Shown here: positions 1-17,031 of the stretch, piece by piece
Position numbering within the stretch: the stretch's first letter is position 1
Layout: every line of letters begins with the position of its first letter
NCBI GenBank assembly: GCA_964247135.1
Contig: CAXTTL010000092.1
Span: forward strand, 1 to 17,308
DNA: 17,308 bases
Reading direction: 5' to 3'
From: an uncultured Deinococcales bacterium
GTDB lineage: Bacteria > Deinococcota > Deinococci > Deinococcales > JAAFIG01
Made by a program: the position numbers and the translations under genes
The notes under the pieces: generated by a model
Seen by the model: only the letters and a program-made list of their open reading frames with translations
The model's database searches: none
Told to the model about the DNA's origin: nothing

Positions 1-690
1 AGCCCCCGATAACTCGAGAAGGCGCCGAATCACAGGATAGGATTCAAGCCTCAGCGATTTTGAATTGCGCACACCGCTCGAGAGTTCGGTGTTCCAACGG
101 TCCAGCGTCAAAACATCGTTTAAAGCCCGACAAAACGGGATCAGATCACCGACCACGCCCACCTCATAATCTGCCGCCTGGGCATAACTTGAGATCAAAG
201 CCACCAGCGCCTCGCTCGAGATTCGTTCGACATCGGCGGACAGCACGGCAATGTCGAGCCAAGGCAAGCCGACACAGACCGAATTCCAATTTCGCAACGC
301 GCATCGACCATTGACAAAACCCGCATTCTCGAGGCGACAATTTCCATGCACCACGCTCGAGAACAACCCTGACAGCGGTTCGGCAAGTTCTGCGATCATC
401 ACCCCAGCCTGCTCGAGAAGTTCGGTTTGAGCGACTGTGACCTGGTACTCGCCGCGCTCCGCCAGACTTGCCACTTCAGCCAAAACATATGGCGTCGCGC
501 GAGAAAACCATACCGCATCGCGCAGCTCGAGATCAGCAAAAGATTTGCCCTTAAACTCGAGGTGAAACGCCCCCAACGCGGTTCCAAACCTCGAGAAATC
601 ATCCAGACTCGAGTTAGCCTCGAGCGCCACAAAATCGGGTTCGAGCGCATTTGCGTAAAATGGGTGAAACTCGAGAAATTCGTTTATCAC
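1..690 (-). CDS. APH/phosphotransferase-like protein with degenerate catalytic motifs (runs off the window start; not in ORF track)
   Basis: Manual translation from GTG at 690 stays open to position 1 (MINEFLEFHPFY...FGTALGAFH...SVVHGNCRLENAGFVNGRCALRNWNSVCVGLPWLDIA...RRLLELSGA). Spacing matches the APH-family pattern LARLH ... HGDxxxxN ... IDW ... GxPxxDLA. An in-frame TAG at 706-708 bounds it upstream. Confidence 0.7.
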   Translation of the reverse strand, partial: MINEFLEFHPFYANALEPDFVALEANSSLDDFSRFGTALGAFHLEFKGKSFADLELRDAVWFSRATPYVLAEVASLAERGEYQVTVAQTELLEQAGVMIAELAEPLSGLFSSVVHGNCRLENAGFVNGRCALRNWNSVCVGLPWLDIAVLSADVERISSEALVALISSYAQAADYEVGVVGDLIPFCRALNDVLTLDRWNTELSSGVRNSKSLRLESYPVIRRLLELSGA

Positions 691-753
691 ATCGTGTACC
701 TGAATCTATGCTTGGGTTCGTTGCCAAAATTGAAACTTCTTGAAGTCATTGCC

Positions 754-1263
754 TTAATTTTGATCGGATAAGGCTCGCTCGATAATGACTTCATCAACGT
801 ATTTTCCATCGATTTTGGCATGGTTTTTGGCAATTCCAACTTGCGTAAATCCCTGCCCGAAATAAGCCTTCAAACCAGCAACATTATCGGCGCGAACATA
901 CGCGAAAAGTTTTTCAAACCCCTTGCTTCTGGCAGCTTGAAATGTCGCATGGAACAGGATTTTCCCCACGCCTTGCTGCTGGAAATTGATGCCAACAAAA
1001 GTACCAATAATGCCGACATGGTCAAAACTCGAGGTGTAAGCACCAAAAGGTTCAACGGTCTGAAACCCTGCAATCTTGCCTGCGCTTGTGACCGCAACGT
1101 TAAAAACACCTCGTTTGGGAAACTGGGTGATAAATTCACGTTCTTCTTGTTCGGTAAATTTCTTCGTGAACACAGAATTCGCTCGAGCTTCGATGATCGG
1201 GTTTAAAACGTCAATGATGCCGTTCGCATCTTCAACAGTGGCTTCCCGAACAAAAACATTCAT
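754..1263 (-). CDS. GNAT family N-acetyltransferase (YncA/phosphinothricin acetyltransferase-like)
   Basis: 169 aa. N-terminal VREATVED, acetyl-CoA motif A QQQGVGK, and C-terminal N...GF..VG...KIDGKYVDEVIIER. Overlaps the gcvPB stop codon. Confidence 0.9.
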   Translation of the reverse strand: MNVFVREATVEDANGIIDVLNPIIEARANSVFTKKFTEQEEREFITQFPKRGVFNVAVTSAGKIAGFQTVEPFGAYTSSFDHVGIIGTFVGINFQQQGVGKILFHATFQAARSKGFEKLFAYVRADNVAGLKAYFGQGFTQVGIAKNHAKIDGKYVDEVIIERALSDQN

Positions 1264-2777
1264 ACACTCTTGAGTTTCTTAAAACTCAAGACGGGTTTTT
1301 TGGCAGCCATCACCTCATCCAAACGTCGAACTGGCGTGTTGTACGGCGCGTGCTCGAGCCAGTCGGGATTGTCAGTGGCTCTGCGTAAAATCTCGCCCAA
1401 AACGTTGGCGTAATTGTCCAGCGTCTCGAGGCTTTCGGTTTCGGTCGGTTCCATCATCATGGCTTCTGGTACAACCAACGGAAAGTACACGGTCATCGGA
1501 TGAACGCCATAATCGAGCAAACCCTTGGCAACATCCAGCGTGTGAAGCTCGAGTTTCTCGCCGTCATGACCTATTTTTGGCGGCACCGCCACAAACTCGT
1601 GCATGTTCAGGCGGTCGTAGGCAATCGTGTAGCCTTGCTGTTGTACTTTCTTACGCAAGTAATTTGCGTTCAAGACCGCCATGCTCGAGACATCGTGCAA
1701 ACCCTCTGCGCCCAGGCTGCGAATGTAGGTGTAAGCCCGCACCAGGTTGCCAAAATTTCCGTAATGGCTGCGAACCCGACCGATGGTGTTTGGACGGTCA
1801 AAATCGAGGTTGAAGGTTTCGCCCGTTTTGACAATCACTGGCGTTGGCAAAAACGGCTCGAGGTGTGCTTTCACGCCGACAGGACCCGTTCCAGGACCGC
1901 CGCCGCCGTGCGGCACGGTGAAGGTTTTGTGCAAATTTAAATGGATCACGTCAAAGCCCATATCGCCTGGACGGGCGCGTCCGACAATCGCGTTGGTGTT
2001 CGCGCCGTCGTAATACAGTTGCACCCCAAATTCATGGGCGGCTTTGGCAATCTCGAGAATTCTGGTTTCAAAAATACCCAGGGTGTTCGGGTTGGTCAAC
2101 ATGATCGCGGCAACGTGATTTCCCAGCGCGGCTTTCAGCGCGTCAAAATCCACCTCGCCGCGCTCATTGCCAGGAATCTCGACCACTTCAAAACCCGCCA
2201 TCGCCGCCGTGGCTGGGTTCGTGCCGTGCGCCGCATCTGGGCAGATAACAACCCGCCTTTGCTCGAGTTCACCTCTCAAAGCAAAGTATTTGCGGATCAT
2301 CAAAATGCCCGTGAACTCGCCGTGCGCCCCTGCGGCGGGTTGCAACGTCACCGCGTCCATGCCCGTGATCTGTCCAAGGCTGCTGGCGAGGTTGTGGAGC
2401 AACTCGAGCGCCCCCTGCGCCGTGCTGGGGTCCTGGTACGGGTGCAAATCCGTGAACCAAGGTGCAACGGTTTCATGCACTTTGGGATTGTATTTCATGG
2501 TGCAACTGCCGAGCGGGTAAAAATTCGCATCGACGCTCATCTGACGGTTCGCCAAACCCGTGTAATGCCGTACCAGATCGAGTTCCGAAACCTCGGGCAG
2601 TTTTGGCGGACTCGAGCGCAAGTTCTCTGCGCCGAACAAATCCTCGAGATTCACGTTTTGGGCAAGCTTGGCTTGTGGCGGAATCACGCCGCGCCGTCCT
2701 GGTTTGGAGCGTTCAAAAATCAACGGAAAATCTGCATCTTCAAGACTGGCTTTGGGTTTCTCGAGCGTTAAGGTCAT
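1260..2777 (-). CDS. gcvPB: Glycine dehydrogenase (decarboxylating) subunit 2
   Basis: 505 aa with YPLGSCTMKYNP, LQPAAGAHGE, AHGTNPATA and the PLP-lysine motif HLNLHKTFTVPHGGGGPG. Confidence 0.97.
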   Translation of the reverse strand: MTLTLEKPKASLEDADFPLIFERSKPGRRGVIPPQAKLAQNVNLEDLFGAENLRSSPPKLPEVSELDLVRHYTGLANRQMSVDANFYPLGSCTMKYNPKVHETVAPWFTDLHPYQDPSTAQGALELLHNLASSLGQITGMDAVTLQPAAGAHGEFTGILMIRKYFALRGELEQRRVVICPDAAHGTNPATAAMAGFEVVEIPGNERGEVDFDALKAALGNHVAAIMLTNPNTLGIFETRILEIAKAAHEFGVQLYYDGANTNAIVGRARPGDMGFDVIHLNLHKTFTVPHGGGGPGTGPVGVKAHLEPFLPTPVIVKTGETFNLDFDRPNTIGRVRSHYGNFGNLVRAYTYIRSLGAEGLHDVSSMAVLNANYLRKKVQQQGYTIAYDRLNMHEFVAVPPKIGHDGEKLELHTLDVAKGLLDYGVHPMTVYFPLVVPEAMMMEPTETESLETLDNYANVLGEILRRATDNPDWLEHAPYNTPVRRLDEVMAAKKPVLSFKKLKSV

Positions 2778-4090
2778 GCCAGCACTTCCTTTAAAGCGGC
2801 AACAAGTTTTTCAATGTCTTCAACGGTGTTGAGTTCGGTGGCGCTGAACAATCCAGCCTTTCCAAAACCGTACTCGAGCGGCACAGGAACGCAGGCATGA
2901 ACACCCAATTGTGCAAGTCCTGCCCGAACTTCGGTTGCAGGCTTGGAAAGCTTGACCGCAAACTCATTAAAAAACTTGCCAACCGTCAAGACCTCGAGTC
3001 CAAATTCTCGCAATGCCTGCTCGAGTTCGCCCGCCATGACCGCGCTGGCAATCGCCACCTCGCGCAAGCCGTTTGGTCCAAGGCTCGCCAGGTAAATTGA
3101 GCTTTGCAACGCCATCAGCGCGTGGTTGCTGCAAATGTTGGATTTGGCTTTTGCCCGTCTGATGTGTTGCTCCCTGGCTTGCAAGGTCAGCACGAAGCCG
3201 CGTTTGCCGTCCACGTCCTTGGTTGCCCCGACAATGCGCCCAGGCAATTGCCGCATCAAGGCTTCACGCACGGCAATAAAGCCGTAACTCGGACCACCAA
3301 AATTGGCGGCGTTACCAATCGTTTGACCGTCGCCCACCGCAATATCCGCACCGTATTCGCCAGGAGATTTCAGCACCGCCAAACTTAGGGGGTCAACCAC
3401 CGCGATAAACAAGGCTCCAGCCTCATGCGCCGCCTTCGCCAGCGCCATCATGTCCTCCAGTGAGCCTAAAAAGTTTGGGCTTTGCACAATCACCGCGCCA
3501 ATATCAGATTCAACACTCGAGATTGGAGTTCGCGTGCCGTCCAACTCGAGCGTCAATAACTTGGCGTCAACGCATTCCAGAAAAGTTTGCAAGGTTTCTC
3601 GAGACTCTGGATGCACGCCCTTTGAGATCAAGACTTTATTGCGGTTCGTTTGCCTGAGCGCCAAAAGTGCCGCCTCAGCCACCGCCGTCGCACCGTCGTA
3701 CAAACTCGAGTTGGAAACATCCAAACCAGTCAGTTCCACGATCATGCTTTGATACTCGAACATCGCTTGCAGTTCGCCCTGCGCGACTTCGGGTTGATAC
3801 GGCGTGTACGCCGTGACGAACGCCGATTGAAAGGTCAGGGCATCGACCGCGCTCGGTTGAAAATGCCGCGCCATTCCACCGCCCAAGAAATTCGCGCCAT
3901 TGGTATTGTTCTTGTCCGCCAACGCCTTCATGTGCTGGGTGATGCCGTACTCGTCCAAACCAGCGGGAATATCAATCTTTGGGTTGCGAATCCCTTCAGG
4001 TAAATCGGTGAACAATTCATCGACGCTCGAGACGCCAATGACCGCCAGCGCCCGAGAGATGTCTTCAGGTGTATGGGGTGTATATTTCAT
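2774..4090 (-). CDS. gcvPA: Glycine dehydrogenase (decarboxylating) subunit 1
   Basis: 438 aa with TAYTPYQPEVAQG, NSSLYDGATAVAEA and LTLQAREQHIRRAKAKSNICSN. ATGA overlaps with both neighbours. Confidence 0.97.
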   Translation of the reverse strand: MKYTPHTPEDISRALAVIGVSSVDELFTDLPEGIRNPKIDIPAGLDEYGITQHMKALADKNNTNGANFLGGGMARHFQPSAVDALTFQSAFVTAYTPYQPEVAQGELQAMFEYQSMIVELTGLDVSNSSLYDGATAVAEAALLALRQTNRNKVLISKGVHPESRETLQTFLECVDAKLLTLELDGTRTPISSVESDIGAVIVQSPNFLGSLEDMMALAKAAHEAGALFIAVVDPLSLAVLKSPGEYGADIAVGDGQTIGNAANFGGPSYGFIAVREALMRQLPGRIVGATKDVDGKRGFVLTLQAREQHIRRAKAKSNICSNHALMALQSSIYLASLGPNGLREVAIASAVMAGELEQALREFGLEVLTVGKFFNEFAVKLSKPATEVRAGLAQLGVHACVPVPLEYGFGKAGLFSATELNTVEDIEKLVAALKEVLA

Positions 4091-4467
4091 GACTCTAGTT
4101 CAGCCACTTCTTGATACGCGCCGGCATCGAGCAGACCTGTTGGCTGACTCGAGATTCTGACCTTAAACAAAAACCCATTTCCGTAAGGGTCGGCGTTGAT
4201 GTTTTCGGGTTCTTCGACCAAACTCGAGTTCACCTCAATCACCTCGCCCGAGATTGGGCTGTAAATGTCGCTGGCGGTCTTGACGCTCTCAACCACGGCG
4301 GCGTTGTCGCCCTGCTTTAAAATTTTACCGACGGCTGGAAGTTCGACAAACACCACATCGCCCAGTTGATCCTGGGCAAAATCGGTGATGCCAACGGTGG
4401 CGATGTCACCCTCGAGACGCAGGTATTCGTGGGTTTTGAGGTATTGCAGGTTGCTTGGAATGTTCAT
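4087..4467 (-). CDS. gcvH: Glycine cleavage system H protein
   Basis: 126 aa with GITDFAQDQLGDVVFVELP and the lipoyl-lysine motif VESVKTASDIYSP. GAGAGG RBS upstream. Confidence 0.98.
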   Translation of the reverse strand: MNIPSNLQYLKTHEYLRLEGDIATVGITDFAQDQLGDVVFVELPAVGKILKQGDNAAVVESVKTASDIYSPISGEVIEVNSSLVEEPENINADPYGNGFLFKVRISSQPTGLLDAGAYQEVAELES

Positions 4468-4471
4468 AATT

Positions 4472-4654
4472 TTACCTCTCTTTGGAATCTGATAGAGTTT
4501 TGAAAATGTGTTGATTAAAGAAACCTTTTCTGGATTCGATATTATGATCTGAGTTATAATATGCTTTGAGATTTGAAATTATATTCAATAAAAATGATAT
4601 AAAAATAAAAATTGCCAATCTTAAGAATTTATCAAACACGTTGGAGTCAAGCAT
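4472..4654 (-). CDS. Small AT-rich hypothetical protein with one hydrophobic segment (possibly a gene remnant)
   Basis: 60 aa with LAIFIFISFLLNII and an upstream GAGGA. Much lower GC than flanking genes and no recognisable family. Confidence 0.3.
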   Translation of the reverse strand: MLDSNVFDKFLRLAIFIFISFLLNIISNLKAYYNSDHNIESRKGFFNQHIFKTLSDSKER

Positions 4655-4745
4655 AAGTTAACCATCCTCAAAATGCGTATTGGCATTTTATTTAGCGTCA
4701 CTGATTAGAGTCATGCTAAGAAGCTCACTACAGACATTGGTCATC

Positions 4746-5321
4746 TCATGACCATTCAATCGTATCTTCTGGGAATGCCAAACAGGTTATGGTTTGCCCT
4801 GCTTTTACCGTAAAACTGTTGGCATAACGTTCCTGCTCAGGATTGCGGTATACCTCGAGTTGGTTGTTGGTCAAATTAACAATCCAATATTCTTCAATCC
4901 CATCTCGAGCATAAAGTGATTGCTTGAAATTTCGATCTTGATGAATCGAACTTTCAGCGACTTCGATAATCAAGTAAATATCTTCAGGTTGTGGAGAATG
5001 TTCGTCAGTCACTGAGCCAAGTTTAAACAAGGCAATGTCTGGTAGCGGTCGCCCGTCGCTGGGCAGTTCAATTGGACTTTGCGCAAACACTTCGGCTCGA
5101 GCGGCAAACTGATTGTTCATGCGGTCATAAATGCGTTTGATTCGGTTGGCATGGGCTTGTTTCATGTCTGGTAGCGAAACCAGATAACCATCAAGAAGTT
5201 CAACTCGAGCATCGTCTGGCAGCACATTGGATTCCAGCATGGTTCGGAATTGTGAAAGCGTGAACCGAAATAGGTGCATCGGCTCTGGTAAATTTGGTCG
5301 TGGCTCAAAAGATGCGGTCAT
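4746..5321 (-). CDS. Uma2 family (DUF820) putative PD-(D/E)xK endonuclease
   Basis: 191 aa with RVELLDG, PLPDIALFK and LIIEVAESSIHQDRNFKQSLYARDGIEEYWIVNL, the typical Uma2 signature. Confidence 0.9.
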   Translation of the reverse strand: MTASFEPRPNLPEPMHLFRFTLSQFRTMLESNVLPDDARVELLDGYLVSLPDMKQAHANRIKRIYDRMNNQFAARAEVFAQSPIELPSDGRPLPDIALFKLGSVTDEHSPQPEDIYLIIEVAESSIHQDRNFKQSLYARDGIEEYWIVNLTNNQLEVYRNPEQERYANSFTVKAGQTITCLAFPEDTIEWS

Positions 5322-5325
5322 GGTT

Positions 5326-6432
5326 TTACTTTAGCAAATGCCTTACTGCCCCTGGAGCGTTCCTCGAGATAAACACGGCTTCGACAATCTGAGCTGGCAC
5401 GTCTGCCCCGCGAATCTCGAGATCAACTTTTGTTCCCATTTCAAGATCAACATCGACATAGGCTAGTGCAATTCCAACTTTTAAACTGGGTGACATCGTA
5501 CCGCTGGTGCAATGTCCAACGACGTGCCCCGCCAATTTAACCGGGAAACCTTCGCGCGGAATGCCGCGTCCTGAGACTTGAATGCCGACCAAAGCTCTGG
5601 TTTTTGGGGCTGTCATCATGGCGTCGCGCCCATAAAATTCTTTGTATTCCTTAACTGCCCACTTGAAGGGTGTCTCGAGCGGGTTGGTGCTCTCCGACCA
5701 TTCGTGACCGTAAAGCGGGTAACCAGCCTCCAAACGCAGCGTGTCTCGGGCGCCCAAACCGCAAGGCTCGAATTGAAGCTCGAGCAATCTGGTCCACAAA
5801 TCGGGTGCGTTGATCGGCGCACAGAAAATCTCGAAACCGTCCTCGCCCGTGTAACCCGTGCGTGCCATGCGAACCGAGTAACCAAACAGCGTGGTGTCAA
5901 AGACCGAATTCTTCTTGCGGCTCGAGAGTGATTCGGTGCAGTGGTCCTCGAGCATGGTTTGGGTCTTTGGTCCTTGTACGGCGATCAATGCCCAGTCGTT
6001 GGATTGATTCTCGAGGGTCACCTCAAACGCCCTGGTTAAATTCGAGAGGTGATTGAAGTCTTTTTCGATGTTTGAAGCGTTGACCACCATCAAATAGCGG
6101 CTTTCGCTTAATCTGTAAACATAAATATCATCGACCAAACCGCCGTTTTTGTTGGGCAGCATGTTGTACTGGGCACGTCCTGGTTTTAACTTGGACACGT
6201 CATTCACAGTCACGTATTGCAAAAACCCGAGCGCCTGAACACCACTGATGATGAATTCACCCATGTGTGAAACGTCAAACATGCCGGCGCGTTCGCGCAC
6301 CGCCAAATGTTCTTGAATCACGCCAGCGTATTGCACAGGCATCTCCCAACCGCCAAAGGGCACCATTCGTGCTTTTAGCTCGAGATGCTTGTGATACAAG
6401 GGCGTGCGCAGCAGTTCCGAGTGTTCAATCAT
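5326..6432 (-). CDS. gcvT: Glycine cleavage system aminomethyltransferase T
   Basis: RTPLY...MVPFGGWEMPVQY, FDVSHMGE, RTGYTGEDGFE and GLGARDTLRLEAG. Start moved from TTG 6468 to ATG 6432 because a TATGCT -10 lies 6 nt upstream of it. Confidence 0.96.
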   Translation of the reverse strand: MIEHSELLRTPLYHKHLELKARMVPFGGWEMPVQYAGVIQEHLAVRERAGMFDVSHMGEFIISGVQALGFLQYVTVNDVSKLKPGRAQYNMLPNKNGGLVDDIYVYRLSESRYLMVVNASNIEKDFNHLSNLTRAFEVTLENQSNDWALIAVQGPKTQTMLEDHCTESLSSRKKNSVFDTTLFGYSVRMARTGYTGEDGFEIFCAPINAPDLWTRLLELQFEPCGLGARDTLRLEAGYPLYGHEWSESTNPLETPFKWAVKEYKEFYGRDAMMTAPKTRALVGIQVSGRGIPREGFPVKLAGHVVGHCTSGTMSPSLKVGIALAYVDVDLEMGTKVDLEIRGADVPAQIVEAVFISRNAPGAVRHLLK

Positions 6433-6438
6433 GGCTTC

Positions 6439-6444
6439 AGCATA
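6439..6444 (-). promoter_or_regulatory. Putative -10 element of a leaderless gcvT transcript
   Basis: Minus strand reads TATGCT-GAAGCC-ATG (TAnnnT, 6 nt, start codon) with no Shine-Dalgarno. Confidence 0.55.
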
Positions 6445-6462
6445 GGCTACCAGAAAGCCGGC

Positions 6463-6516
6463 TTGCAAAGATTGCGTTTAAAGCTCGAGATTTGCATTTG
6501 TGCGCAACATCATTGC
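6463..6516. promoter_or_regulatory. Putative Lrp/AsnC operator array between gcvT and the regulator
   Basis: GCAAAGATTGC (6465-6475) and GCAACATCATTGC (6504-6516). TTGC recurs at 6472, 6492 and 6513, about two helical turns apart. Confidence 0.45.
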
Positions 6517-6530
6517 TTGAATTTTTGATT

Positions 6531-6536
6531 TAGTAT
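6531..6536 (+). promoter_or_regulatory. Putative -10 element of a leaderless Lrp regulator transcript
   Basis: TAGTAT, then 6 nt, then ATG 6543, with no Shine-Dalgarno. Confidence 0.5.
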
Positions 6537-6542
6537 TGTTTT

Positions 6543-7013
6543 ATGGCGCAAATAGCCCTTGATCCCATCGACCTTCAGATTCTCGAGGTTTTGGGGCGTA
6601 ATGCCCGAATTCCCAACACCGAACTTGCCGACGAGGTCGGATTAACCCCTGCGCCGTGTTTGCGTCGGGTCAAACGGCTCGAGGATTTGGGCGTGATCGA
6701 AGGGTATGGCGTTCGGGTGAATCCCTCGAGCCTGGGGCTTGGCTTGACGGTTTTTGTGTCGGTCACGTTAGACCGTCAAACCAAAGGCAGCTATGACACT
6801 TTCGCGCAGAACATAATTGTCCACCCTGAAGTGTGCGAGTGCTATTTGATGCTTGGCGAACGCGATTTTCTACTTAAAGTCATGGTTTCAGACCTCGAGG
6901 CGTACCAGCGGTTTTACCTCAAACACCTGACCACGCTTGCAGGGGTGCGTCACATCAACTCGAGCATCGTGGTCAAAGTAGAAAAGCGCGAAATCGGTTT
7001 TACGGCGCATTAA
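6543..7013 (+). CDS. Lrp/AsnC family transcriptional regulator
   Basis: 156 aa with LDPIDLQILEVL..NARIPNTELADEVGLTPAPCLRRVKRLEDLGVIEGY and a C-terminal RAM domain (PEVCECYLMLGERDFLLKV). Divergent from gcvT. Confidence 0.95.
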   Translation: MAQIALDPIDLQILEVLGRNARIPNTELADEVGLTPAPCLRRVKRLEDLGVIEGYGVRVNPSSLGLGLTVFVSVTLDRQTKGSYDTFAQNIIVHPEVCECYLMLGERDFLLKVMVSDLEAYQRFYLKHLTTLAGVRHINSSIVVKVEKREIGFTAH

Positions 7014-7027
7014 TGACTTGTCTTTAA

Positions 7028-7738: not shown

Positions 7739-7903
7739 GGTTAAAACCTCAAAAGGTGTGATGCGGTCGGTGAATGGGGTGGCACAACGCGTGGCTACAG
7801 CTTACACGTTTAGGCTGGTTTCAATTCAATATCAAGTCTGGTTTTGAACTGGTTTTAGCCCGACGGTTTGGATTGATACGGCGCATATGTTAGCCTTTTT
7901 GCT

Positions 7904-8599
7904 GTGAATCCAGCCAGCGAGGGTGCTTCTTTTATTTTGGCACTCGAGGTTTTAAACTTAAAGCATTCGTTTCAAACCGATGCGGGAACGCTCGAGGTGT
8001 TAAAGGGTTTGAGTTTTTCGCTTGCTGCCGGTCGGGTTTTAGCGATTGTCGGTCCAAGTGGTTCGGGCAAATCGACTTTGCTGCATTTGCTTGGCGGTTT
8101 GGAGACGCCAACGTCAGGCGAACTGGTTTGGGGAGGCGTCAGCCTGGCTGGGGCATCTCAGGAGGTCTTGGCTTCAAGGCGGGCGCTCGAGGTTGGATTT
8201 GTCTTTCAACACCATTATTTATTAGAGGATTTGACGGCGCTCGAGAATGTTGGATTGCCTGGTTTGATCGCTTCCAAGCCCAATGATGCCCGTGCCATGG
8301 AACTTTTGGAACGGGTCGGCTTGCAAGACCGCGCCAATTTTTTTCCTCGAGCCTTGTCTGGCGGCGAGCGACAACGGGCTGCCATCGCGCGGGCGCTTTT
8401 GACAAAACCCCGTTTAATTTTAGCCGACGAACCCACCGGCAGTTTGGATCGCGCCAATGCCGATTTGGTCTTTGGAATGCTGGTCGAATTGGCGCGACTC
8501 GAGAATACGGCGGTGGTGGTGGTGACGCACGATGAAAGTCTGGTCTCGCGGGTGGATGAAGTGATTCGACTCGAGGATGGTCGAATGGTCTCGGTTTGA
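7904..8599 (+). CDS. ABC transporter ATP-binding protein, LolD/MacB-type
   Basis: Walker A GPSGSGKST, VGFVFQHHYLL, LSGGERQR, Walker B ILADEPTGSLD and VVTHD. The start codon is uncertain. Confidence 0.9.
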   Translation: MNPASEGASFILALEVLNLKHSFQTDAGTLEVLKGLSFSLAAGRVLAIVGPSGSGKSTLLHLLGGLETPTSGELVWGGVSLAGASQEVLASRRALEVGFVFQHHYLLEDLTALENVGLPGLIASKPNDARAMELLERVGLQDRANFFPRALSGGERQRAAIARALLTKPRLILADEPTGSLDRANADLVFGMLVELARLENTAVVVVTHDESLVSRVDEVIRLEDGRMVSV

Positions 8600-8709: not shown

Positions 8710-8725
8710 CGTGATATATTTCACA
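8710..8725. promoter_or_regulatory. CRP-type binding site
   Basis: CGTGA-TATATT-TCACA, one mismatch from TGTGA-N6-TCACA, in AT-rich intergenic DNA about 150 bp upstream of smpB. Confidence 0.6.
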
Positions 8726-8873
8726 AGCACTGCCGCCAATAATAAGGGCTTTTTTATTGATTTTGCCCACATCTTCAAGGAATGAGTGACGTGCTCATGC
8801 AGGTGTGGGTACAATAACCAAGCACTCGAGACAGTTTTGGAAAAATATGTTTTACTCAGCAGGGGAGAAGTCA

Positions 8874-9299
8874 ATGTTCGAAAATCGACGTGCCAGATTT
8901 GAATACGAACTGCTTGAGCGTTTTGAGGCAGGTCTTGTCTTAAAAGGCACCGAAATCAAAAGCGTGCGGGTCAACGGTTTGGACTTCAGGGACAGCTTCG
9001 CTCGGTTTCAAAACAACGAACTTTTTTTGGAGAGTCTGTATATTCCCCCCCTCGAGAAAGCCTCATACAACAACCACGACCCGCGCCGCAACCGCAAATT
9101 ACTCTTGCACCGCAAAGAACTCGAGACACTGAAAGTCGCGGTTGCCCGCAAAGGTTTAAGCATCGTTCCAGTTAAAATGTATTTTAAAGAGGGACGCTTA
9201 AAGCTCGAGATTGCCCTCGCCAGGGGCAAGAAACTGCACGACAAGCGCGAGGCAGAAAAAACCAAAGAGGCAAAACGCGAAATGGAGCGTTTCCGATGA
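8874..9299 (+). CDS. smpB: SsrA-binding protein SmpB
   Basis: ENRRARFEYELLERFEAGLVLKGTEIKS, NHDPRRNRKLLLH and ARGKKLHDKRE. ATG 8874 is preceded by an AGGGGAG RBS, so it is preferred over the track start at 8805. Confidence 0.97.
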   Translation: MFENRRARFEYELLERFEAGLVLKGTEIKSVRVNGLDFRDSFARFQNNELFLESLYIPPLEKASYNNHDPRRNRKLLLHRKELETLKVAVARKGLSIVPVKMYFKEGRLKLEIALARGKKLHDKREAEKTKEAKREMERFR

Positions 9300-11364: not shown

Positions 11365-11367
11365 TTT

Positions 11368-14300
11368 GTGAGCGTGCGGGTGCGGTCGGTCACCATTGCC
11401 GGTTTTAAATCCTTTGGCGAAAAAGTCAGGCTCGAGTTTCACCCCAAAGTCAACGCGGTGATCGGACCGAACGGTTCGGGCAAGTCGAACGTCATTGAAG
11501 GGATTCGCTGGGCTTCACACACCGCCAGAACCAGGGAATTGCGGGTGCGTGAAAGCACCGAACTGATCTTTCACGGTTCACTCGGCAAGGCGCCGCTCGG
11601 CATGGCGGAGGTCGAACTCGAACTTGAGCAATTTGAGGGGGCAAACCTGAGCATTGCGCGGCGTTTGTACCGCGACGGCGACAGCGACCTCGAGTTGGCG
11701 GGCAAAACCATTCGGGTGCGGGATTTGCACGATGTCCTGCGCGGCTCTGGGCTTGGACCTGGCGGGCTGGCGGTCGTCGGTCAGGGCGAAATCGGCGCGG
11801 TGATCGGCGCCAACCCCGAAACCATGCTCGGTTACCTCGAGGAGGCGGCGGGTTTGTCGCGCGCCACGCACCGCCGCGCCCAAAGCATCGAGCGGCTCGA
11901 GCAGGCAAAGCTTCATTTGGAACGCGCAATGGATTTAAGCCTCGAGGTCAAGCAGCGCGTGTTGAAACTCGAGAAAGACGCGGGTGCCGCGCTCGAGGCG
12001 GCAAGCTTAAATTTGGAAGTCAAAACCCTTGAGGCAGCCATTCAACGCCAGCGCATTCGGACGTTGCGCGATGAAATTGCGGTGCTCGAGAGAGAAAGCC
12101 AGGAAACCCAGACGCTCTCAAACCAAGCCTCAACCAGCATTCAAGCTGCCAGCCAGGGACTCGAGCAAACACGAATCAAGCGCGAAACCGTCCAACTCGA
12201 GTTCGCCAAGCGCAGCGCCGAGGTCGCGCGACTTCAAGGCGAGGCGAGGGCGCTCCGTGAACGCGCCAGCGCCGCCGATTCCAACTTGCAGGGTTTAGAG
12301 CGCGAACAACAAAACCTCGAGGTTGAACAGCAAAACCTCGCAAAACTCGAGCCTCCAATGCCGCCAGCGACGCCCGAGGACAACCTTTCCAAGCTCGAGA
12401 AAGCGCTTGAAGATGCCCGTTTTGCCTTGCGGGATGCCGAGAGACAAGAATTGCAAGCGCGAAAAAATTACGGGGAAGCCCGAACACGGCGCGATTCTGA
12501 ATTGCAAGAATCCAGCCAACGCCGCGAGAAAATGGCAGCCATGACCGCCGAGCGCGAAACGATTCTGGTTGAGTTCAACACCTGCCAAACCGAACTGGAA
12601 ACCATTCAAAACGAACTTCTCAACGCGCAAAGCCACGCCGACGACGCTCGAGCCGAATTTGAAGCCTCGAACAAGATGCTCGACAAACTCGAGCGCGAAT
12701 CGAGCCTGGTTTCCGGTCGCATCTCCGAAAACGGCACTCGAGCCGCCGAGTTGCGGGCGGCGCGGACCCCGATTCAAAAAGAATACGCACGCCTCGAGGC
12801 GACCCGTCAATCTCGAGCCAATTTATCCGAAGGTCCGCGCAAAGCCCTCAATTCTAAAGTCGAGGGCATCATTGGACCGGTCGCCGATTTGATTGCTGTT
12901 CCCGAGTACCTCGAGACGGCGCTGGGCGCAGCCCTGGGTCGGCGCATCGAACAGATTGTGGTGCAAAATGGTGAGGTCGCCAAAACCGTGATCGAGCACC
13001 TCAAGCGCATCGGTGGACGCGCCACATTTTTGCCGCTCGAGATTTTGCGGGCGCGACCAAGACGCGAAAGCCCAATCTCGAGCGAAAAGGGCGTGCTGGG
13101 TTATGCCGCCGATTTGATCGGGTCCGAATACCGCATTGTGGTGGACACCTTGCTGGGCGATACGCTGGTGATCGAAAATCTGGACATCGCCCTCAAACTC
13201 GCCAAAAAACATCCGAACCGCCCGAGGCTGGTGACGCTCGAGGGTGAATTGCTCGAGGCGGGCGGCGCGGTCACCGGCGGTAAAGGACGTGACACGGCAG
13301 GGGAGACGTTCGCCGAAAATCGGCGTTTGTTTGAAGCCAAAGCCGAACTCGAGCGACTCGAGCAAGATTTAACCGCGATTGAGCAGATTTTGCTCGAAGA
13401 CCGCGACGCTGCCCAAAGCAGCCGCGAGGCGGTGGTCCGAGCCGATCAGCGCCTCAAGAACAACCGCGAACACCTTGACGCGACACGCGACAGCATTCTG
13501 GCGCTCGAAACCCGTCGGGACAGCCTGAACAGCCGTGTGGCGCAACTCGAGCTGAGGTTGAAAAACCTGCCGAGCACAGCGGAGAGCGAACTCGAGCCAG
13601 GAATTTCTGGCATTGACCTCTCGCCGCTCGAAAGCTTGATTGTCGCCGCCAGCGATAGCCTGGCGCACGCTCGAGAATTGGAGCGAAACGCCGACGCGAG
13701 TCTTCGTGAGGCGCGTCAAAAACTCGCGGTCTTTGCCGAACAACAACGCACCTTTGACATGGCGATGGCACGGTTTCAACAATCCAAATCGCGCCTCGAA
13801 CTCATCCGCACCAGGCTCGAGGAACTGCATTTGGCACAACTCGAGATTGAGCACCGATTGTCTGAAGCCAACCCAGAGATTTTGCGCTTGGAAGAACTCG
13901 CAAAATCCCTCGACCTCGACGTGAGCCGAGCCGAACTGACCAACCTCGAGACCGAGCGCAAACAGCTCGAAATTGAACTCGCCAACCAAACCCGTATTTT
14001 ATCCGAAACCCGCGAAAAACTCGAGGCGCAAAAACTTGCCAAGGCACGCCGTGAAGCCAACCTCGAGACATTGGTGCAAGAATTGCTGGGACGCGATCTT
14101 GAACCTGAACCCCCAACTGAAACCGAACTTCAAGCCTTGCTCGAGCAAGCCAACCCCGAAGGCACGCCGCGAACTTGGGCGGCTCGAGTCAACCAGATTC
14201 GCAGCCGACTGAGTGAGCTGGGTGCGGTCAACCCGCTCGCCAAAGACGAATTTGAAATTGAATCCAAACGCCTGATCGAGTTGGAAGCGGGCATCGCCGA

Positions 14301-14850
14301 TTCCAGCGCCGCCGTGATTGAGCTTGAAAGCGCCCTCGACCAACTCGAGCGCGAAGTCACCAGCAAACTCCGCGAAAGCATCAAACGCGTGACCGAAGCC
14401 TTCCGCGCCCATATCCTCGAGCTGCTGGGCGGCGAGGGCGAAGTCGAACTGGTGCGCGACGAGGCGGGGGCGCTCGAGGGTCTGGCGTTGCGCGTGACGC
14501 CTAAAGGCAAACGCACACGATCACTGCATTTGCTCTCCACCGGCGAACGCACGATGGCGGCACTCGGATTTTTGTTTGCCCTCGCCCAAGCGCCCGAGGA
14601 TTCTCGAGGCTTGCCGCTGGCGGTGCTCGATGAGGTTGACGCACCGCTCGACGAAGCCAACATTCGGCGCTTTACGCAATTTTTAAGGCTTCTTGCCGAC
14701 AAAGGCACACAGTTTATTTTGGTCACACACCAAAAAGCCACGATGGAAATTGCCGACGCGCTCTGGGGGGTGACCACGGATGCGGGCGGCGTCTCGAGGA
14801 CGTTTAGCATCCGAAATGAATCCATTGAAGCATATGCTGTTGCGCGATGA
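11368..14850 (+). CDS. smc: Chromosome segregation protein SMC
   Basis: 1160 aa with GFKSF, Walker A GPNGSGKSN, long coiled coils, a hinge (GRATFLPL, LVTLEGELLEAGGAVTGG), LGAVNPLA, signature LSTGE and Walker B/D-loop VLDEVDAPLDEAN. Confidence 0.95.
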   Translation: MSVRVRSVTIAGFKSFGEKVRLEFHPKVNAVIGPNGSGKSNVIEGIRWASHTARTRELRVRESTELIFHGSLGKAPLGMAEVELELEQFEGANLSIARRLYRDGDSDLELAGKTIRVRDLHDVLRGSGLGPGGLAVVGQGEIGAVIGANPETMLGYLEEAAGLSRATHRRAQSIERLEQAKLHLERAMDLSLEVKQRVLKLEKDAGAALEAASLNLEVKTLEAAIQRQRIRTLRDEIAVLERESQETQTLSNQASTSIQAASQGLEQTRIKRETVQLEFAKRSAEVARLQGEARALRERASAADSNLQGLEREQQNLEVEQQNLAKLEPPMPPATPEDNLSKLEKALEDARFALRDAERQELQARKNYGEARTRRDSELQESSQRREKMAAMTAERETILVEFNTCQTELETIQNELLNAQSHADDARAEFEASNKMLDKLERESSLVSGRISENGTRAAELRAARTPIQKEYARLEATRQSRANLSEGPRKALNSKVEGIIGPVADLIAVPEYLETALGAALGRRIEQIVVQNGEVAKTVIEHLKRIGGRATFLPLEILRARPRRESPISSEKGVLGYAADLIGSEYRIVVDTLLGDTLVIENLDIALKLAKKHPNRPRLVTLEGELLEAGGAVTGGKGRDTAGETFAENRRLFEAKAELERLEQDLTAIEQILLEDRDAAQSSREAVVRADQRLKNNREHLDATRDSILALETRRDSLNSRVAQLELRLKNLPSTAESELEPGISGIDLSPLESLIVAASDSLAHARELERNADASLREARQKLAVFAEQQRTFDMAMARFQQSKSRLELIRTRLEELHLAQLEIEHRLSEANPEILRLEELAKSLDLDVSRAELTNLETERKQLEIELANQTRILSETREKLEAQKLAKARREANLETLVQELLGRDLEPEPPTETELQALLEQANPEGTPRTWAARVNQIRSRLSELGAVNPLAKDEFEIESKRLIELEAGIADSSAAVIELESALDQLEREVTSKLRESIKRVTEAFRAHILELLGGEGEVELVRDEAGALEGLALRVTPKGKRTRSLHLLSTGERTMAALGFLFALAQAPEDSRGLPLAVLDEVDAPLDEANIRRFTQFLRLLADKGTQFILVTHQKATMEIADALWGVTTDAGGVSRTFSIRNESIEAYAVAR

Positions 14851-14896
14851 GGTTGTTTTCAGTGTAAGATTTTCGTCTTGAAGAACGGAGGTTGCC

Positions 14897-15745
14897 ATGA
14901 GCGAAAACAAGCAAGTCTGGCTGATCACGGGGGCGGGTCGCGGTCTGGGCGTAGACATCGCCAAGGCTGCTCTCGCCGCTGGACATGCCGTCGTTGCCAC
15001 TGGACGCGACCCGCAAAAGATCGCTACAGCCATCGGGGCGCATGACCATCTGCTCAGTGTCAAACTGGACGTGACCAACTCGGACGATGCTCAGGCTGCG
15101 GTGCGGTCTGCGGTTGAGCGCTTTGGTAGATTGGATGTGCTGGTGAACAATGCGGGAAACTTTTTCGCCGGATTTTTCGAGGAACTCAGCCCGCAGCAGG
15201 TTCGGAGCCAGATTGAAACATTGCTGTTTGGTCCGATGAATGTCACCCGTGCCGCCTTACCCGAAATGCGAAAACAGCGTTCCGGTTTGGTGATGACCAT
15301 CTCATCGACCGCTGGACTCCAGGGGCAGGCATTCTGTACAGCTTACGCGGCGGCAAAGTTTGGTATCGAAGGCTGGATGGAATCACTCACGCCTGAGATT
15401 GCCCCCTTCGGTCTCAAAACGATGCTGGTCGAACCAGGTTTTTTCCGAACAGAACTCCTCTCCGACGGTTCCACCACCTATGCCGAACCGCATCTGGAGG
15501 ACTACGCCGAGAAGACCAGGGAAACCGTCACCGCCTGGAATGGCATGAACGGTCAGCAGACCGGTGATCCCATCAAGCTCGCCCGCGCCCTGGTAAACCT
15601 CGCGGCGCGAGATGAGCCGCCTGTGCGCTTTGCCGCCGGCGCCGATGCCGTAGCCGTTTTCGAGCAGAAGGCAAAGGACTTGCTCGCTCAGGCGGGTGCT
15701 CACCGTGAACTCTCGAGCAGCCTTGCGCTCGAAGGTGAAGCATGA
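14897..15745 (+). CDS. Short-chain dehydrogenase/reductase (classical SDR)
   Basis: TGAGRGLG, DVLVNNAG, YAAAK catalytic motif and VEPGFFRT. GGAGG RBS upstream. Confidence 0.95.
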   Translation: MSENKQVWLITGAGRGLGVDIAKAALAAGHAVVATGRDPQKIATAIGAHDHLLSVKLDVTNSDDAQAAVRSAVERFGRLDVLVNNAGNFFAGFFEELSPQQVRSQIETLLFGPMNVTRAALPEMRKQRSGLVMTISSTAGLQGQAFCTAYAAAKFGIEGWMESLTPEIAPFGLKTMLVEPGFFRTELLSDGSTTYAEPHLEDYAEKTRETVTAWNGMNGQQTGDPIKLARALVNLAARDEPPVRFAAGADAVAVFEQKAKDLLAQAGAHRELSSSLALEGEA

Positions 15746-15834
15746 ATCCCACCGATTACGCCCGCTGAGGATTCGCCTTAATGCTCGAGAAGAAATAAAT
15801 CATTTGATATTGTTTTTCTAAAAATGAAAACCAG

Positions 15835-15850
15835 AAAAATTGCAATTTTT
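15835..15850. repeat. Perfect 16-bp palindrome AAAAATTGCAATTTTT
   Basis: Read directly from the sequence; self-complementary. Confidence 0.85.
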
Positions 15851-15888
15851 TATCGTCTGGCTGAAAAAACCGTGGCAGACGATAAAAA
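15847..15888. repeat. 13-bp perfect inverted repeat with 16-bp spacer
   Basis: TTTTTATCGTCTG (15847-15859) and CAGACGATAAAAA (15876-15888). Confidence 0.85.
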
Positions 15889-15919
15889 TCATCATTCACG
15901 CTAAAAGCCGTTTTAAGCC

Positions 15920-15961
15920 CCCTCGAGATTGGCTCGAGGGTTCTCACACCCTCTCACACCC
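15920..15961. repeat. Double-CTCGAG hairpin followed by a 10-bp tandem repeat
   Basis: CCCTCGAG-ATTGG-CTCGAGGG (15920-15940), then TCTCACACCC x2 (15942-15961), directly after the recombinase stop codon. Confidence 0.7.
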
Positions 15962-15972
15962 CAGAATTTTGG

Positions 15973-17031
15973 TTACCCTGCTTCATCACGCATCGATTCC
16001 ATCTTCTCGAGCGCCTCACGCCGAACGTCCATGTCCATTTTGGCGTAAATCGCGCTGGTGTTCACACTGGCATGACCGAGCACGTCGGCAACCACATGCA
16101 AATCCCTGGTGGCACGGTACAGGTGCGTGCCTGCCGTGCGGCGCAACGTGTGCAATCCCCACATGGCGGCGGGCAAACCCATGCTTTGATAATAACCTTT
16201 GGCAATAAACCTCGCCCCGTCGGTGGTTAATCGTTTGCCACCCGAGTCATTTCTCGAGACTGAAACCAACAACGCCGTTTCAGACGATGCGATTTCATTT
16301 CTTAAAACCATCCCGTGACGAACCTCGAGCCAGGATTTGAGCATTCCCACGATGTTTTTAGAGAGCGGAATAAAGCGTTGTTTGCCGCCCTTGCCCGATT
16401 TTACGGTCAATCGTTTGACACCCATTTCAATGTCACTCACGTTTAAACTGACAATTTCCATTGCCCGTAAACCCGCCGAACCACCCAAAGCCAACAGCAG
16501 CACATCTCGAGCGTGGCGGGCATCATCCACGCCGTACTTCAGGGCTGGAGCCTCAAGCAAATCGCGGTACAAGGCAGGGGAGAGCGCATTTTTTCTCGAG
16601 TGGGCGGGCGTTGGGTCTTTGGGCGGTCTGACCTCCCCCGCCGGATTGCCGCTGGCGGCTTTCGCCCAAATGAGGGCACGGTACATGGCGCGTAAGCCAT
16701 ACAAATAAGCGGCGATTGAACCTGGCGTCAAACCTTCCTGCTGCAAACCCACCATCCAGAATTCGATGTCTTCAGCCTCGAGCCGCGTCAATTCGAGCCT
16801 TGCGCCGTCCGTGTTGGCGAATTCGAGGAAACGCCGTACTGCCAGTTCGTACAGCCGTCTGGTGTCTGGCGAGGTGTCGGCTTTGCGCGAGCTTTTCAGC
16901 GTCAGATAATGGTTGAGAAGCTCGAGCAAGGTTTTTTCGTCTTGGTCGTGCGCGGCACGTACCGCTTCGCGTTTGCGGTTTTCGGAATTTTGAAACTTAG
17001 AAACCAGTTGAAGCTCGAATTTGCCGCTCAC
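15973..17031 (-). CDS. Tyrosine recombinase/integrase (XerC/D-like)
   Basis: 352 aa with a SAM-like N-domain (SPDTRRLY..AVRRF) and a complete catalytic set: GLRAMEI (R), SGKGGK (K), LHTLRR (HxxR), VLGHAS (H), SAIYA (Y). Confidence 0.93.
   Translation of the reverse strand: MSGKFELQLVSKFQNSENRKREAVRAAHDQDEKTLLELLNHYLTLKSSRKADTSPDTRRLYELAVRRFLEFANTDGARLELTRLEAEDIEFWMVGLQQEGLTPGSIAAYLYGLRAMYRALIWAKAASGNPAGEVRPPKDPTPAHSRKNALSPALYRDLLEAPALKYGVDDARHARDVLLLALGGSAGLRAMEIVSLNVSDIEMGVKRLTVKSGKGGKQRFIPLSKNIVGMLKSWLEVRHGMVLRNEIASSETALLVSVSRNDSGGKRLTTDGARFIAKGYYQSMGLPAAMWGLHTLRRTAGTHLYRATRDLHVVADVLGHASVNTSAIYAKMDMDVRREALEKMESMRDEAG

Follow-up and report, generated by a model that had tools for sequence, protein, structure and literature searches.

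Our analysis shows that the palindromic hexamer CTCGAG is hugely over-represented in the genome of an uncultured Deinococcales bacterium (GenBank assembly GCA_964247135.1; GTDB lineage Deinococcota, Deinococci, Deinococcales, JAAFIG01) and in all 19 genomes of its GTDB family. The window referred to below is the whole stretch of 17,308 nucleotides (nt) that was analyzed, positions 1 to 17,308 of contig CAXTTL010000092.1 (C92 in our numbering, in which C denotes a contig and G a genome); it belongs to a draft genome of 5,091,702 bases in 386 contigs, with 52.7% guanine plus cytosine (GC), 84% completeness, and 1.8% contamination. There is very little doubt that CTCGAG is a genuine family-wide hyper-abundant palindrome. 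It is enriched in all reading frames and densest in noncoding DNA; existing copies are lost slowly while new ones continue to be gained, often by multi-base changes and in parallel; the number of copies per gene is constant; recent low-GC DNA lacks it; and the dipeptide Leu-Glu is more than doubled.

The window contains exactly 129 copies, on average one per 134 bp, the first at positions 13 to 18 and the last at positions 16921 to 16926. An earlier note, made by inspection of the window, had estimated about 129 copies over the same span and 12 within the first 700 bp, and our counts agree on each point. In 200 dinucleotide-preserving shuffles of the window, the mean was 3.89 copies (standard deviation, 1.92; maximum, 11), and none of the 200 reached 129. 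The whole draft genome has 33,925 copies, or one per 150 bp, which is 24.8 times the 1,369 copies that its base composition predicts. CTCGAG is the top hexamer genome-wide by more than 2 times, the next-ranked words overlap it, and 62% of all TCGA tetramers in the genome fall within it. Each of the 297 contigs longer than 5 kb carries it, at 2.6 to 10.5 copies per kb (median, 6.8). The nulls applied were zero-order composition, the dinucleotide shuffle, and a codon-preserving shuffle; the highest-order Markov expectation is uninformative because the 5-mers CTCGA and TCGAG mostly come from CTCGAG itself.

The exact hexamer is the unit, because no flanking position carries more than 0.07 bits of information and the palindrome arms extend no further than chance; the varying flanks had already been pointed out in the earlier note. 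Two other candidates for the unit were rejected. (i) A longer motif, GCTCGAGC, accounts for only 6.5 to 14% of the sites, a share that differs among genomes, and the flank information speaks against it as well. (ii) The center of a hairpin or terminator was dismissed on the chance-level arm length, despite a raised density just past stop codons.

One may ask if the excess simply follows from codon usage, from a preference for Leu-Glu, or from GC content, or else is an assembly or library artifact. High-GC relatives and unrelated high-GC genomes are indeed 2 to 6 times enriched, which fits preferred CTC and GAG codons, and the Leu-Glu frame holds 61% of the coding sites. This explanation is, however, already refuted by a synonymous shuffle, by the spelling of Leu-Glu, by the family distribution, and by silent-site conservation. 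Genes were approximated by a proxy set of 4,502 open reading frames (ORFs) of at least 100 amino acids (aa), which make up 85.7% of the genome, and their sites were compared with a shuffle that preserves each protein and the per-gene codon usage. Genome-wide, the frame CTC GAG was observed 17,397 times, compared with about 3,086 in the shuffle; the frame nCT CGA Gnn was observed 4,399 times, compared with about 339; and the frame nnC TCG AGn was observed 6,535 times, compared with about 580. An excess of 5.6 to 13 times is left across the three frames. Noncoding DNA is the most enriched, with 5,642 copies in the 750,733 bases outside ORFs (7.5 per kb; observed/expected, 34) and 2,741 copies in 313,581 bases of spacers of 20 to 300 bases (8.7 per kb; observed/expected, 41). 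Outside the motif, Leu is written CTC in only 15% of cases and Glu is written GAG in only 32%, but the spelling CTC GAG accounts for 17,397 of the 22,628 Leu-Glu pairs. Thus, the enrichment neither vanishes under codon and dipeptide control nor is confined to the Leu-Glu frame, two outcomes that the earlier note had singled out as speaking against a DNA-level cause.

A third such outcome, an artifact of one contig or assembly, does not agree with the distribution of the trait. The GTDB family is represented here by 19 genomes from five genera; these are independent assemblies of different projects with 43 to 59% GC, mostly drafts of 74 to 94% completeness, with one complete genome (G011). All 19 carry between 12,028 and 35,442 copies (4.3 to 6.8 per kb). 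In contrast, the 22 genomes of four sister families carry 128 to 7,001 copies, none of the 22 reaches 3 per kb, and one genus is depleted. Because all family genomes are enriched and the sister families are not, the signal is no assembly or library artifact, and the enrichment of all 297 long contigs of the present genome points the same way. The glycine-cleavage P protein finds as its top matches metagenome-assembled genomes (MAGs) labeled Deinococcales or Deinococcota, followed by Trueperaceae at 57 to 61% identity. At this level of single loci, the six nearest MAGs (43.5 to 58.7% GC) have 5.1 to 9.5 copies per kb (observed/expected, 19 to 34), Trueperaceae and other high-GC genomes have observed/expected ratios of 2 to 6, and most remaining genomes are near or below 1.

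Existing copies are retained to an unusual degree. For a two-species comparison, 334.9 kb of the same-genus genome G005 was aligned (237,852 columns, 85.1% identity). Among 1,685 aligned CTCGAG copies, 1,323 (78.5%) are intact in G005, compared with 45% for the median hexamer and 40% predicted by independent change, and CTCGAG ranks first among the 2,177 hexamers with at least 40 occurrences. Copies outside ORFs are conserved in 168 of 234 cases, compared with 33% expected. Silent third positions are identical between the two species as follows.

CTC: 88.9% inside the motif (n = 946), 58.4% elsewhere (n = 1,071)
GAG: 91.6% inside the motif, 65.6% elsewhere
TCG: 86.7% inside the motif, 68.9% elsewhere
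CGA: 83.5% inside the motif, 60.1% elsewhere
nCT: 82.1% inside the motif, 55.4% elsewhere

CTCGAG copies disappear several times more slowly than the adjoining sequence changes. The shuffle excess, the top rank in conservation, and the silent-site identity bear out the idea of a DNA-level process that creates and maintains the sites, as the earlier note had proposed. Where copies were lost, the changes are transitions distributed evenly over the six positions, and no C shows a surplus of C-to-T changes.

Over longer evolutionary distances, the positions turn over. This was traced family-wide in one gene of the window.

2774..4090, minus strand: gcvPA gene with 8 copies of CTCGAG

Every family member has 7 to 12 copies in gcvPA, while outgroups have 1 to 4, none of them at common positions. 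Relatives with 95 to 96% protein identity have five of eight and six of seven site positions in common with this genome; at 71 to 80% protein identity, only one to three of up to eight positions are common. The number of copies per gene is constant while their positions drift.

To follow gains and losses, we compared six species of the genus (G000 to G005) over four regions, using 38,857 hexamer windows present in at least five genomes. The six species are near-equidistant, with all 15 pairs 84.3 to 86.4% identical, which corresponds to a star-like radiation. A gain was defined as CTCGAG in exactly one genome (n = 42) and a loss as its absence from exactly one genome with retention by all others (n = 104); the counts are small, their polarity is set by parsimony on a star-like tree of drafts, and silent sites are near saturation. 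Gains, losses, and all changed windows (n = 74,752) differ in the number of bases by which the hexamer departs from CTCGAG or its counterpart.

One base difference: 9 gains, 84 losses, 70.7% of all changed windows
Two base differences: 16 gains, 16 losses, 22.0% of all changed windows
Three base differences: 13 gains, 4 losses, 5.7% of all changed windows
Four base differences: 4 gains, 0 losses, 1.4% of all changed windows

Multi-step events (two to four changes) account for 33 of the 42 gains but for only 20 of the 104 losses (Fisher P = 2.6e-11). The flanks of new sites are conserved; in one example, five species have GCCGCCG-TTTTTG-TTGGGC, and the sixth has GCCGCCG-CTCGAG-TTGGGC. Nineteen gains are silent recodings, including nCC AGG Gnn to nCT CGA Gnn (three times) and TTG GAA to CTC GAG; another 19 alter one to three amino acids (e.g., NKN to NSS), and 4 are noncoding. 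Relative to the baseline, the probability of gain per available ancestor is 1.1 times for one difference (9 of 500 one-off ancestors became CTCGAG), 4.5 times for two, 12 times for three, and 16 times for four, compared with 0.6, 1.4, 2.0, and 2.5 times for 60 abundant control words measured in the same way. Gains comprise 54 transitions and 42 transversions, and losses comprise 99 and 29, respectively.

CTCGAG is present in exactly two of the six species at 28 further sites, in many different pairs of species, and at 21 of these sites, the remaining four species depart from CTCGAG by two bases or more. A recent exchange of DNA between the carriers was rejected as an explanation, the carrier flanks being 84.5% identical, compared with 85.2% genome-wide. 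The substitutions of related species do converge on CTCGAG, as seen in the 42 private gains and the 28 two-species sites; an alignment of orthologs had been suggested in the earlier note as a check on this point. Within 30 nt of new sites, lineage-specific change amounts to 15.6%, compared with 12.3%, and the difference fades by 100 to 300 nt. Ninety-three sites are carried by all six genomes, 84 by five, and 32 by four. From this carrier distribution, we estimate that a site is lost with a probability of about 13% in each lineage and that gains roughly offset the losses. The number of CTCGAG copies relative to that of their 22,412 one-off neighbors would imply a gain-to-loss fixation ratio of about 27, equivalent to a scaled bias of about 3 if a single coefficient applies.

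The high proportion of multi-base gains could suggest a mutational or repair "writer" that has no function at the site and converts arbitrary hexamers into CTCGAG in a single event, either templated or directed by an enzyme. The proportion of gains that alter two to four bases within the hexamer only is well above the baseline (29%) and above that among losses (19%), gains are 12 to 16 times as probable as the baseline at three or four differences, they are rich in transversions relative to losses, and identical positions have been converted in parallel in different species. However, writing alone leaves the slow loss of existing sites unexplained. Local templated copying from a nearby CTCGAG was tried and rejected, as the flanks of new sites match those of nearby copies over 0 to 5 nt, with one case of 7 nt, which is not beyond chance. 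Moreover, the 19 silent gains could be stepwise since silent sites are near saturation, and no enzyme is known for such a conversion. We regard the writer as very unlikely, although some concerted multi-base mechanism of gain may contribute. The data rather suggest a directional force that is strong at protein-tolerated positions, where free one-offs are exhausted and the permissive positions undergo repeated, parallel conversion.

The spacing of the sites, analyzed at short range on the draft contigs, is near geometric (mean, 148 bp; coefficient of variation [CV], 0.96; longest gap, 2,644 bp). The reading frames impose a three-base rhythm on it, distances of 7 to 17 bp are under-represented, and gaps longer than 500 bp number 902, compared with 1,152 expected. 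Two copies are never exactly 6 bp apart, because GAGCTC is banned; this palindrome has 0 copies in 5.09 Mb here and 3 to 25 copies in most family genomes. The spacing is slightly more even than random, which would be in line with CTCGAG being bound by a nucleoid or chromosome-organizing protein that is abundant and specific to the family, the site density being kept by selection for packing or segregation. The palindrome and its six equally constrained positions would suit a dimeric binder, as would the constant density per gene with drifting positions. In the accessible part of Xu et al. 2018 (PMC5861425), selection on the cyanobacterial highly iterated palindrome HIP1 and its kilobase periodicity are described, and a role in chromosome architecture is argued. 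Against such a protein stand the weakness of the evenness, part of the short-range deficit being due to coding constraints and the GAGCTC ban, and the fact that no candidate protein was found in our analysis. In addition, selection per site would by necessity be extremely weak, yet the genome is saturated. An architectural role appears distinctly unlikely.

The density of the motif depends on the kind of DNA. Genes below 40% GC have 1.4 copies per kb and those of 40 to 45% GC have 3.7, compared with 6.6 to 7.0 for typical genes; the islands that form the longest stretches without the motif have 27 to 40% GC. As low-GC genes are poor in CTCGAG, new DNA seems to gain the motif with residence time. 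Islands of 27 to 30% GC that lack the motif over 1.7 to 2.6 kb (C13:11893-14536, C13:4758-6745, C70:14168-16418, and C20:7986-9673) are probably recently acquired genes. Relative to genes, the profile is flat at 6 to 7 copies per kb, with a peak of 11.9 per kb within 30 nt past the stop codon and about 8.5 just 5' of starts. Four contigs, C42 (26.6 kb), C75 (19.4 kb), C137, and C78, have 3.3 to 3.7 copies per kb, about half the usual density, and 0 GAGCTC. C42 has weak PHROG matches to a helicase, an HNH endonuclease, and an ATPase, and C75 has a weak terminase match (E value, 8e-7); these contigs may be resident mobile elements part-way to the host motif density. The 66 tRNA genes (e.g., C14:11589-11740 and C157:3282-3938) have 10 copies in 5.1 kb (1.9 per kb), under the genome average and well over chance. 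Two scans of IMG/VR for clustered CTCGAG returned high-GC phages with 0.4 to 6 sites per kb, none of them resembling the Deinococcales family, and most phages of the second scan are also rich in GAGCTC and GGCC.

Because the earlier note had proposed an orphan XhoI/PaeR7I-like methyltransferase as the cause, the methylases of the family require closer consideration. In such an explanation, an orphan CTCGAG methyltransferase would mark the sites, and methylation-linked repair, with strand discrimination of the type proposed by Elhai or in a manner similar to very-short-patch repair, would create and keep them. There are precedents for it. According to the accessible part of Elhai 2015 (PMC4390886), HIP1 and other cyanobacterial highly iterated palindromes co-occur with methylases that recognize them, and methyl-directed mismatch repair is proposed as a ratchet. 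5-Methylcytosine (m5C) is found on CTCGAG in nature, at 533 of 560 sites in Halorubrum sp. BOL3-1 (PMC8112702, accessible in part). Furthermore, the family is rich in methylases, several of which have no assigned specificity (e.g., C36:20010-21059 and a 499-aa protein on G009:C11).

The present genome encodes two m5C methylases, several beta-class methylases, one Dam-like, one HsdM-like, and two MmeI-family enzymes, and a 1,499-aa methylase on a low-density contig. Four of them adjoin a nuclease.

C14:36040-37936: m5C methylase adjoining an NgoPII-family nuclease
C178:2930-4752: m5C methylase adjoining an Eco29kI-family nuclease
C207:21-1650: beta-class methylase adjoining a NotI-like nuclease (weak match)
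C320:1061-2985: Dam-like methylase adjoining a SacI-family nuclease (PF09566; E value, 8e-7)

These four belong to ordinary restriction systems for other sites, which we take to be GGCC for NgoPII, CCGCGG for Eco29kI, and GAGCTC for SacI. The nuclease families fit the near-absence of GAGCTC (0 copies), CCGCGG (11), and GGCC-containing palindromes (1 to 125). Near-absent palindromes genome-wide also include GGGCCC (1), CGGCCG (3), AGGCCT (4), CGTACG (5), GGATCC (7), and CAGCTG (15). As to general composition, the dinucleotide TA has an observed/expected ratio of 0.39, AA and TT have ratios of 1.45, and CAAAAA, GGTTTT, and AAAACC occur 5 to 6 times as often as expected from composition. Two further candidates proved to be MmeI-family type IIL restriction-modification enzymes (C192:4855-7644 and C21:25623-28157), one of which aligns along its whole length with the solved structure of MmeI (E value, 3e-285), and the candidate on C169, together with recurrent frames of about 500 aa in G005, G011, and G008, represents type I HsdM subunits.

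A cognate methylase that maintains a family-wide motif is not apparent among those surveyed. Four methylases were profiled across the 18 relatives (those on C207, C4:28577-29908, C189, and C112 were not among them), and each has close counterparts in only 2 to 6 of the 18, the Dam-like methylase on C320 in 6; none is family-wide. The complete relative G011 has no PF01555 match, G008 and G015 have no m5C match at an E value of 1e-10 or below, and G015 has no match to any methylase query or family run over the relatives. Family surveys with PF01555 and PF07669 found no member common to the family. None of the 19 family genomes gave a match to the XhoI-family nuclease (PF04555); the search itself works, since the same model matched three outgroup genomes. 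In these sister-family genomes, which have only 1.7 to 2.0 CTCGAG per kb, the systems are arranged as follows.

G021:C1:75199-76793: XhoI-family nuclease and adjoining beta-class methylase
G033:C11:167-1753: XhoI-family nuclease and adjoining beta-class methylase
G031:C1:1093829-1096226: broken XhoI-family nuclease (stop codons) and intact 583-aa gamma-class methylase with TaqI_C

The G031 methylase looks like an enzyme en route to orphan status. As queries, the beta-class and gamma-class XhoI-linked methylases have no counterpart in the 19 family genomes, the best matches reaching 47% identity over about 70 residues and 27%, respectively; their counterparts are in outgroups only (63 to 73% identity for the beta class, 51% for the gamma class). 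An orphan XhoI/PaeR7I-like methyltransferase thus finds no support in these searches. The lack of a methylase match is not decisive, because the accessible part of Elhai 2015 (PMC4390886) records HIP1-rich strains without a recognizable cognate methylase. All in all, methylation-directed maintenance seems unlikely, although some unrecognized enzyme may methylate CTCGAG.

Repair bias and restriction can also be judged by the traces that they leave. Dcm/Vsr very-short-patch repair raises CCWGG in Escherichia coli and resembles the present case in that a repair bias at a short palindrome can lift its genome-wide frequency. The CTCGAG genome (84% complete), however, has no match to Vsr (PF03852), and the neighbors that deamination would produce are not depleted (CTTGAG, 1,442 copies; CTCAAG, 1,436 copies). 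Protection is not limited to one position, no C has an excess of C-to-T changes, and the effect is an order of magnitude larger. The lack of a Vsr match, the undepleted neighbors, and the even protection also speak against methylation-linked repair. XhoI/PaeR7I-type restriction-modification has the same recognition sequence, CTCGAG, and is present in the sister families, but genomes normally avoid restriction targets, whereas CTCGAG is enriched 25 times, and neither the nuclease nor either type of linked methylase was found in the 19 family genomes.

The force is strong enough to mark the proteome. Leu-Glu is the most over-represented dipeptide of the proteome (observed/expected, 2.38), and Ser-Ser reaches 1.63. 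In a comparison with the proteins of a sister-family genome as the outgroup (115 alignments, 48% identity, 34,337 aligned dipeptide columns), Leu-Glu occurs 551 times here and 329 times in the outgroup, Ser-Ser occurs 207 and 111 times, and other dipeptides are similar in number. Only 103 of the 438 Leu-Glu pairs encoded by CTCGAG are also Leu-Glu in the outgroup. At motif-encoded positions, the outgroup keeps Leu in 52% and Glu in 40% of cases, compared with 58% and 49% overall. The statement of the earlier note that the process reshapes protein sequences holds in the light of these numbers, and a force directed at CTCGAG is strong enough to produce a more than 2-fold abundance of Leu-Glu in the proteome.

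In its behavior, CTCGAG is similar to HIP1 (GCGATCGC), a likeness that the earlier note had drawn and that is real with respect to over-representation, noncoding presence, conservation, and clade-wide distribution. Both are short clade-wide palindromes that are hugely over-represented in coding and noncoding DNA, are conserved beyond codon and amino acid constraint, and are low in atypical DNA. One hugely enriched palindrome alongside strong avoidance of many others is likewise a feature of cyanobacteria. There are also differences. CTCGAG is a hexamer of Deinococcota, while HIP1 is an octamer of cyanobacteria. CTCGAG reaches about 6,660 copies per Mb, compared with 300 to 2,700 per Mb (observed/expected, 55 to 228) given for HIP1 in the accessible part of Elhai 2015 (PMC4390886). 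GATC and CGATCG methylases usually accompany HIP1, whereas no cognate methylase was found for CTCGAG in the searched genomes, which are mostly incomplete drafts. Finally, the six positions of CTCGAG are equally constrained, whereas HIP1 one-offs deviate mostly at the ends (PMC4390886, same portion). HIP1 has been linked to natural transformation as well (bioRxiv 10.1101/2024.09.10.611283 and PMC13756078, both accessible in part).

A second likeness is to the uptake sequences of Pasteurellaceae (uptake signal sequence [USS]) and Neisseriaceae (DNA uptake sequence [DUS]). In the accessible part of Findlay & Redfield 2009 (PMC2817400), uptake sequences are described as roughly doubling the peptides that they encode, as missing from genes without homologs, as located at poorly conserved residues, and as accumulating after gene transfer. 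CTCGAG is likewise a family-wide hyper-abundant short motif with encoded peptides about doubled, missing from recently acquired genes, seemingly building up after transfer, and situated at poorly conserved residues, and competence genes are present in the family. The known uptake sequences differ in density, at about 0.4 to 0.9 per kb (copy counts from the same portion of PMC2817400, set against the usual genome sizes), compared with 6.7 per kb for the palindromic hexamer, and the likeness of CTCGAG to them is known here from genomic footprints. In sum, CTCGAG behaves like HIP1 and uptake sequences and unlike an XhoI-type restriction target or a product of very-short-patch repair.

By analogy with these systems, we favor the explanation, at a probability of roughly 0.45, that CTCGAG serves as a "self-DNA" tag of the family in DNA exchange and recombinational repair, whose reader would be neither a recognizable XhoI-type system nor a conserved orphan methylase. 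Tag-rich DNA would preferentially be taken up, processed, or recombined, and tag-creating alleles would thereby displace tag-poor ones, which would constitute a molecular drive, possibly with selection in addition. We infer that the force targets the double-stranded hexamer itself and that it acts as a weak-to-moderate genome-wide fixation bias, not through site-by-site function. A symmetric dimeric reader is probable because the six positions are equally protected, the flanks carry no signal, and the sequence is palindromic; judging from these sequence features, a dimeric protein probably reads CTCGAG. As for competence genes, 18 of the 19 family genomes encode ComEC, and the present genome encodes DprA. 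A bolder reading is possible but doubtful: an undescribed, family-specific system, other than a classical methylase or restriction pair, would tell own from foreign DNA at exchange or break repair, and its bias would fill nearly all protein-tolerated positions and force convergent multi-base rewriting, so that a system similar to HIP1 or uptake sequences would have originated independently in a second phylum.

Several points weigh against the self-DNA tag. (i) ComEC is also present in 22 of 22 outgroup genomes, and competence genes are therefore permissive, not discriminating; no reader protein for CTCGAG was identified in this analysis. (ii) Known uptake sequences are nonpalindromic 9- to 12-mers, whereas a hexamer offers low specificity per site, and Thermus and Deinococcus are not known to favor particular sequences in uptake. 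(iii) If the tags spread with imported foreign alleles, the flanks of new sites would be expected to look imported, but the signal described above is weak. (iv) Single-step gains are not accelerated, while multi-step gains are 4.5 to 16 times as probable as the baseline, a pattern that no simple model predicts; the contrast may come in part from silent-site saturation and exhausted one-off positions. The gain and loss counts behind it are small and come from parsimony over a star-like tree of drafts.

Within the window, the ORF proxy divides the 129 sites into 83 in the frame CTC GAG, 26 in the frame nnC TCG AGn, 16 in the frame nCT CGA Gnn, and 4 outside ORFs. The individual features are the following.

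13..16926: dispersed array of 129 CTCGAG copies, established by counts and shuffles, with no conserved flank and no extended palindrome
6484..6489: intergenic CTCGAG in the spacer between the gcvT start and the start of the Lrp/AsnC regulator gene
6725..6730, plus strand: CTCGAG as nnC TCG AGn in the Lrp/AsnC gene, coding for Ser-Ser of NPSS (translation; Pfam AsnC_trans_reg and HTH_24)
6959..6964, plus strand: CTCGAG as nnC TCG AGn in the Lrp/AsnC gene, coding for Ser-Ser of INSS (translation)
8570..8575, plus strand: CTCGAG private to this genome among the six genus species, the others having TTGGAG or TTGGAA; a silent two-base recoding of Leu-Glu
11368..14850, plus strand: SMC gene with 40 copies of CTCGAG and 50 Leu-Glu in a protein of 1,160 residues
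13077..13082, plus strand: CTCGAG within SMC, private to this genome; five relatives have CGTCAG, CAGTAG, or TTCCAG, with three to four bases different and conserved flanks
15784..15789: CTCGAG outside ORFs, 3' of a short-chain dehydrogenase gene (ORF proxy and Pfam scan)
15922..15938: two CTCGAG outside ORFs, 11 bp apart (15922-15927 and 15933-15938), 3' of an integrase-family gene

The Ser-Ser sites in NPSS and INSS of the Lrp protein, which the earlier note had pointed out, were both confirmed by translation. Four of the five sites that it had called noncoding (6484, 15784, 15922, and 15933) are indeed outside ORFs, but the fifth, at 8825, lies within a GTG-started ORF of the proxy set (8805-9299) and may be coding. 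A scan of 10 ORFs of the window against Pfam found no candidate driver gene for CTCGAG, in accordance with the assertion that the responsible gene is located elsewhere. The genes of the window include a minus-strand glycine-cleavage cluster at 1260-6468, with gcvPB, gcvPA, a 126-aa ORF that may be gcvH, and gcvT. The Lrp/AsnC regulator gene (6543-7013) is divergent from this cluster, which is an ordinary arrangement.

For three decades, hyper-abundant palindromes have remained puzzling, and they are essentially known from a single phylum, the cyanobacteria. We found no literature report of CTCGAG over-representation in a prokaryotic genome, subscription journals and supplements being outside the scope of the search, so that a prior report is possible. 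In the accessible parts of Elhai 2015 (PMC4390886) and Xu et al. 2018 (PMC5861425), "CTCGAG" and "Deinococc" have 0 occurrences. CTCGAG represents an independent case, with another sequence, a higher density, an imprint on the proteome (Leu-Glu 2.4 times and Ser-Ser 1.6 times), and apparently no usual methylase partner. It provides a second data point on the purpose of such tags, and it implies either that the tag does not need methylation as its partner or that a new methylase is to be expected. The 19 genomes offer measurable dynamics of gain and loss. On the practical side, CTCGAG density is a sharp signature for binning and host assignment of the family, the protein alignments and codon models of the family are biased by a force at the DNA level, and XhoI, provided that its sites carry no modification, would digest the family genomes to pieces of about 150 bp. 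If the recognition of own DNA is the true function of CTCGAG, the purpose of such tags could become testable by comparison across phyla.

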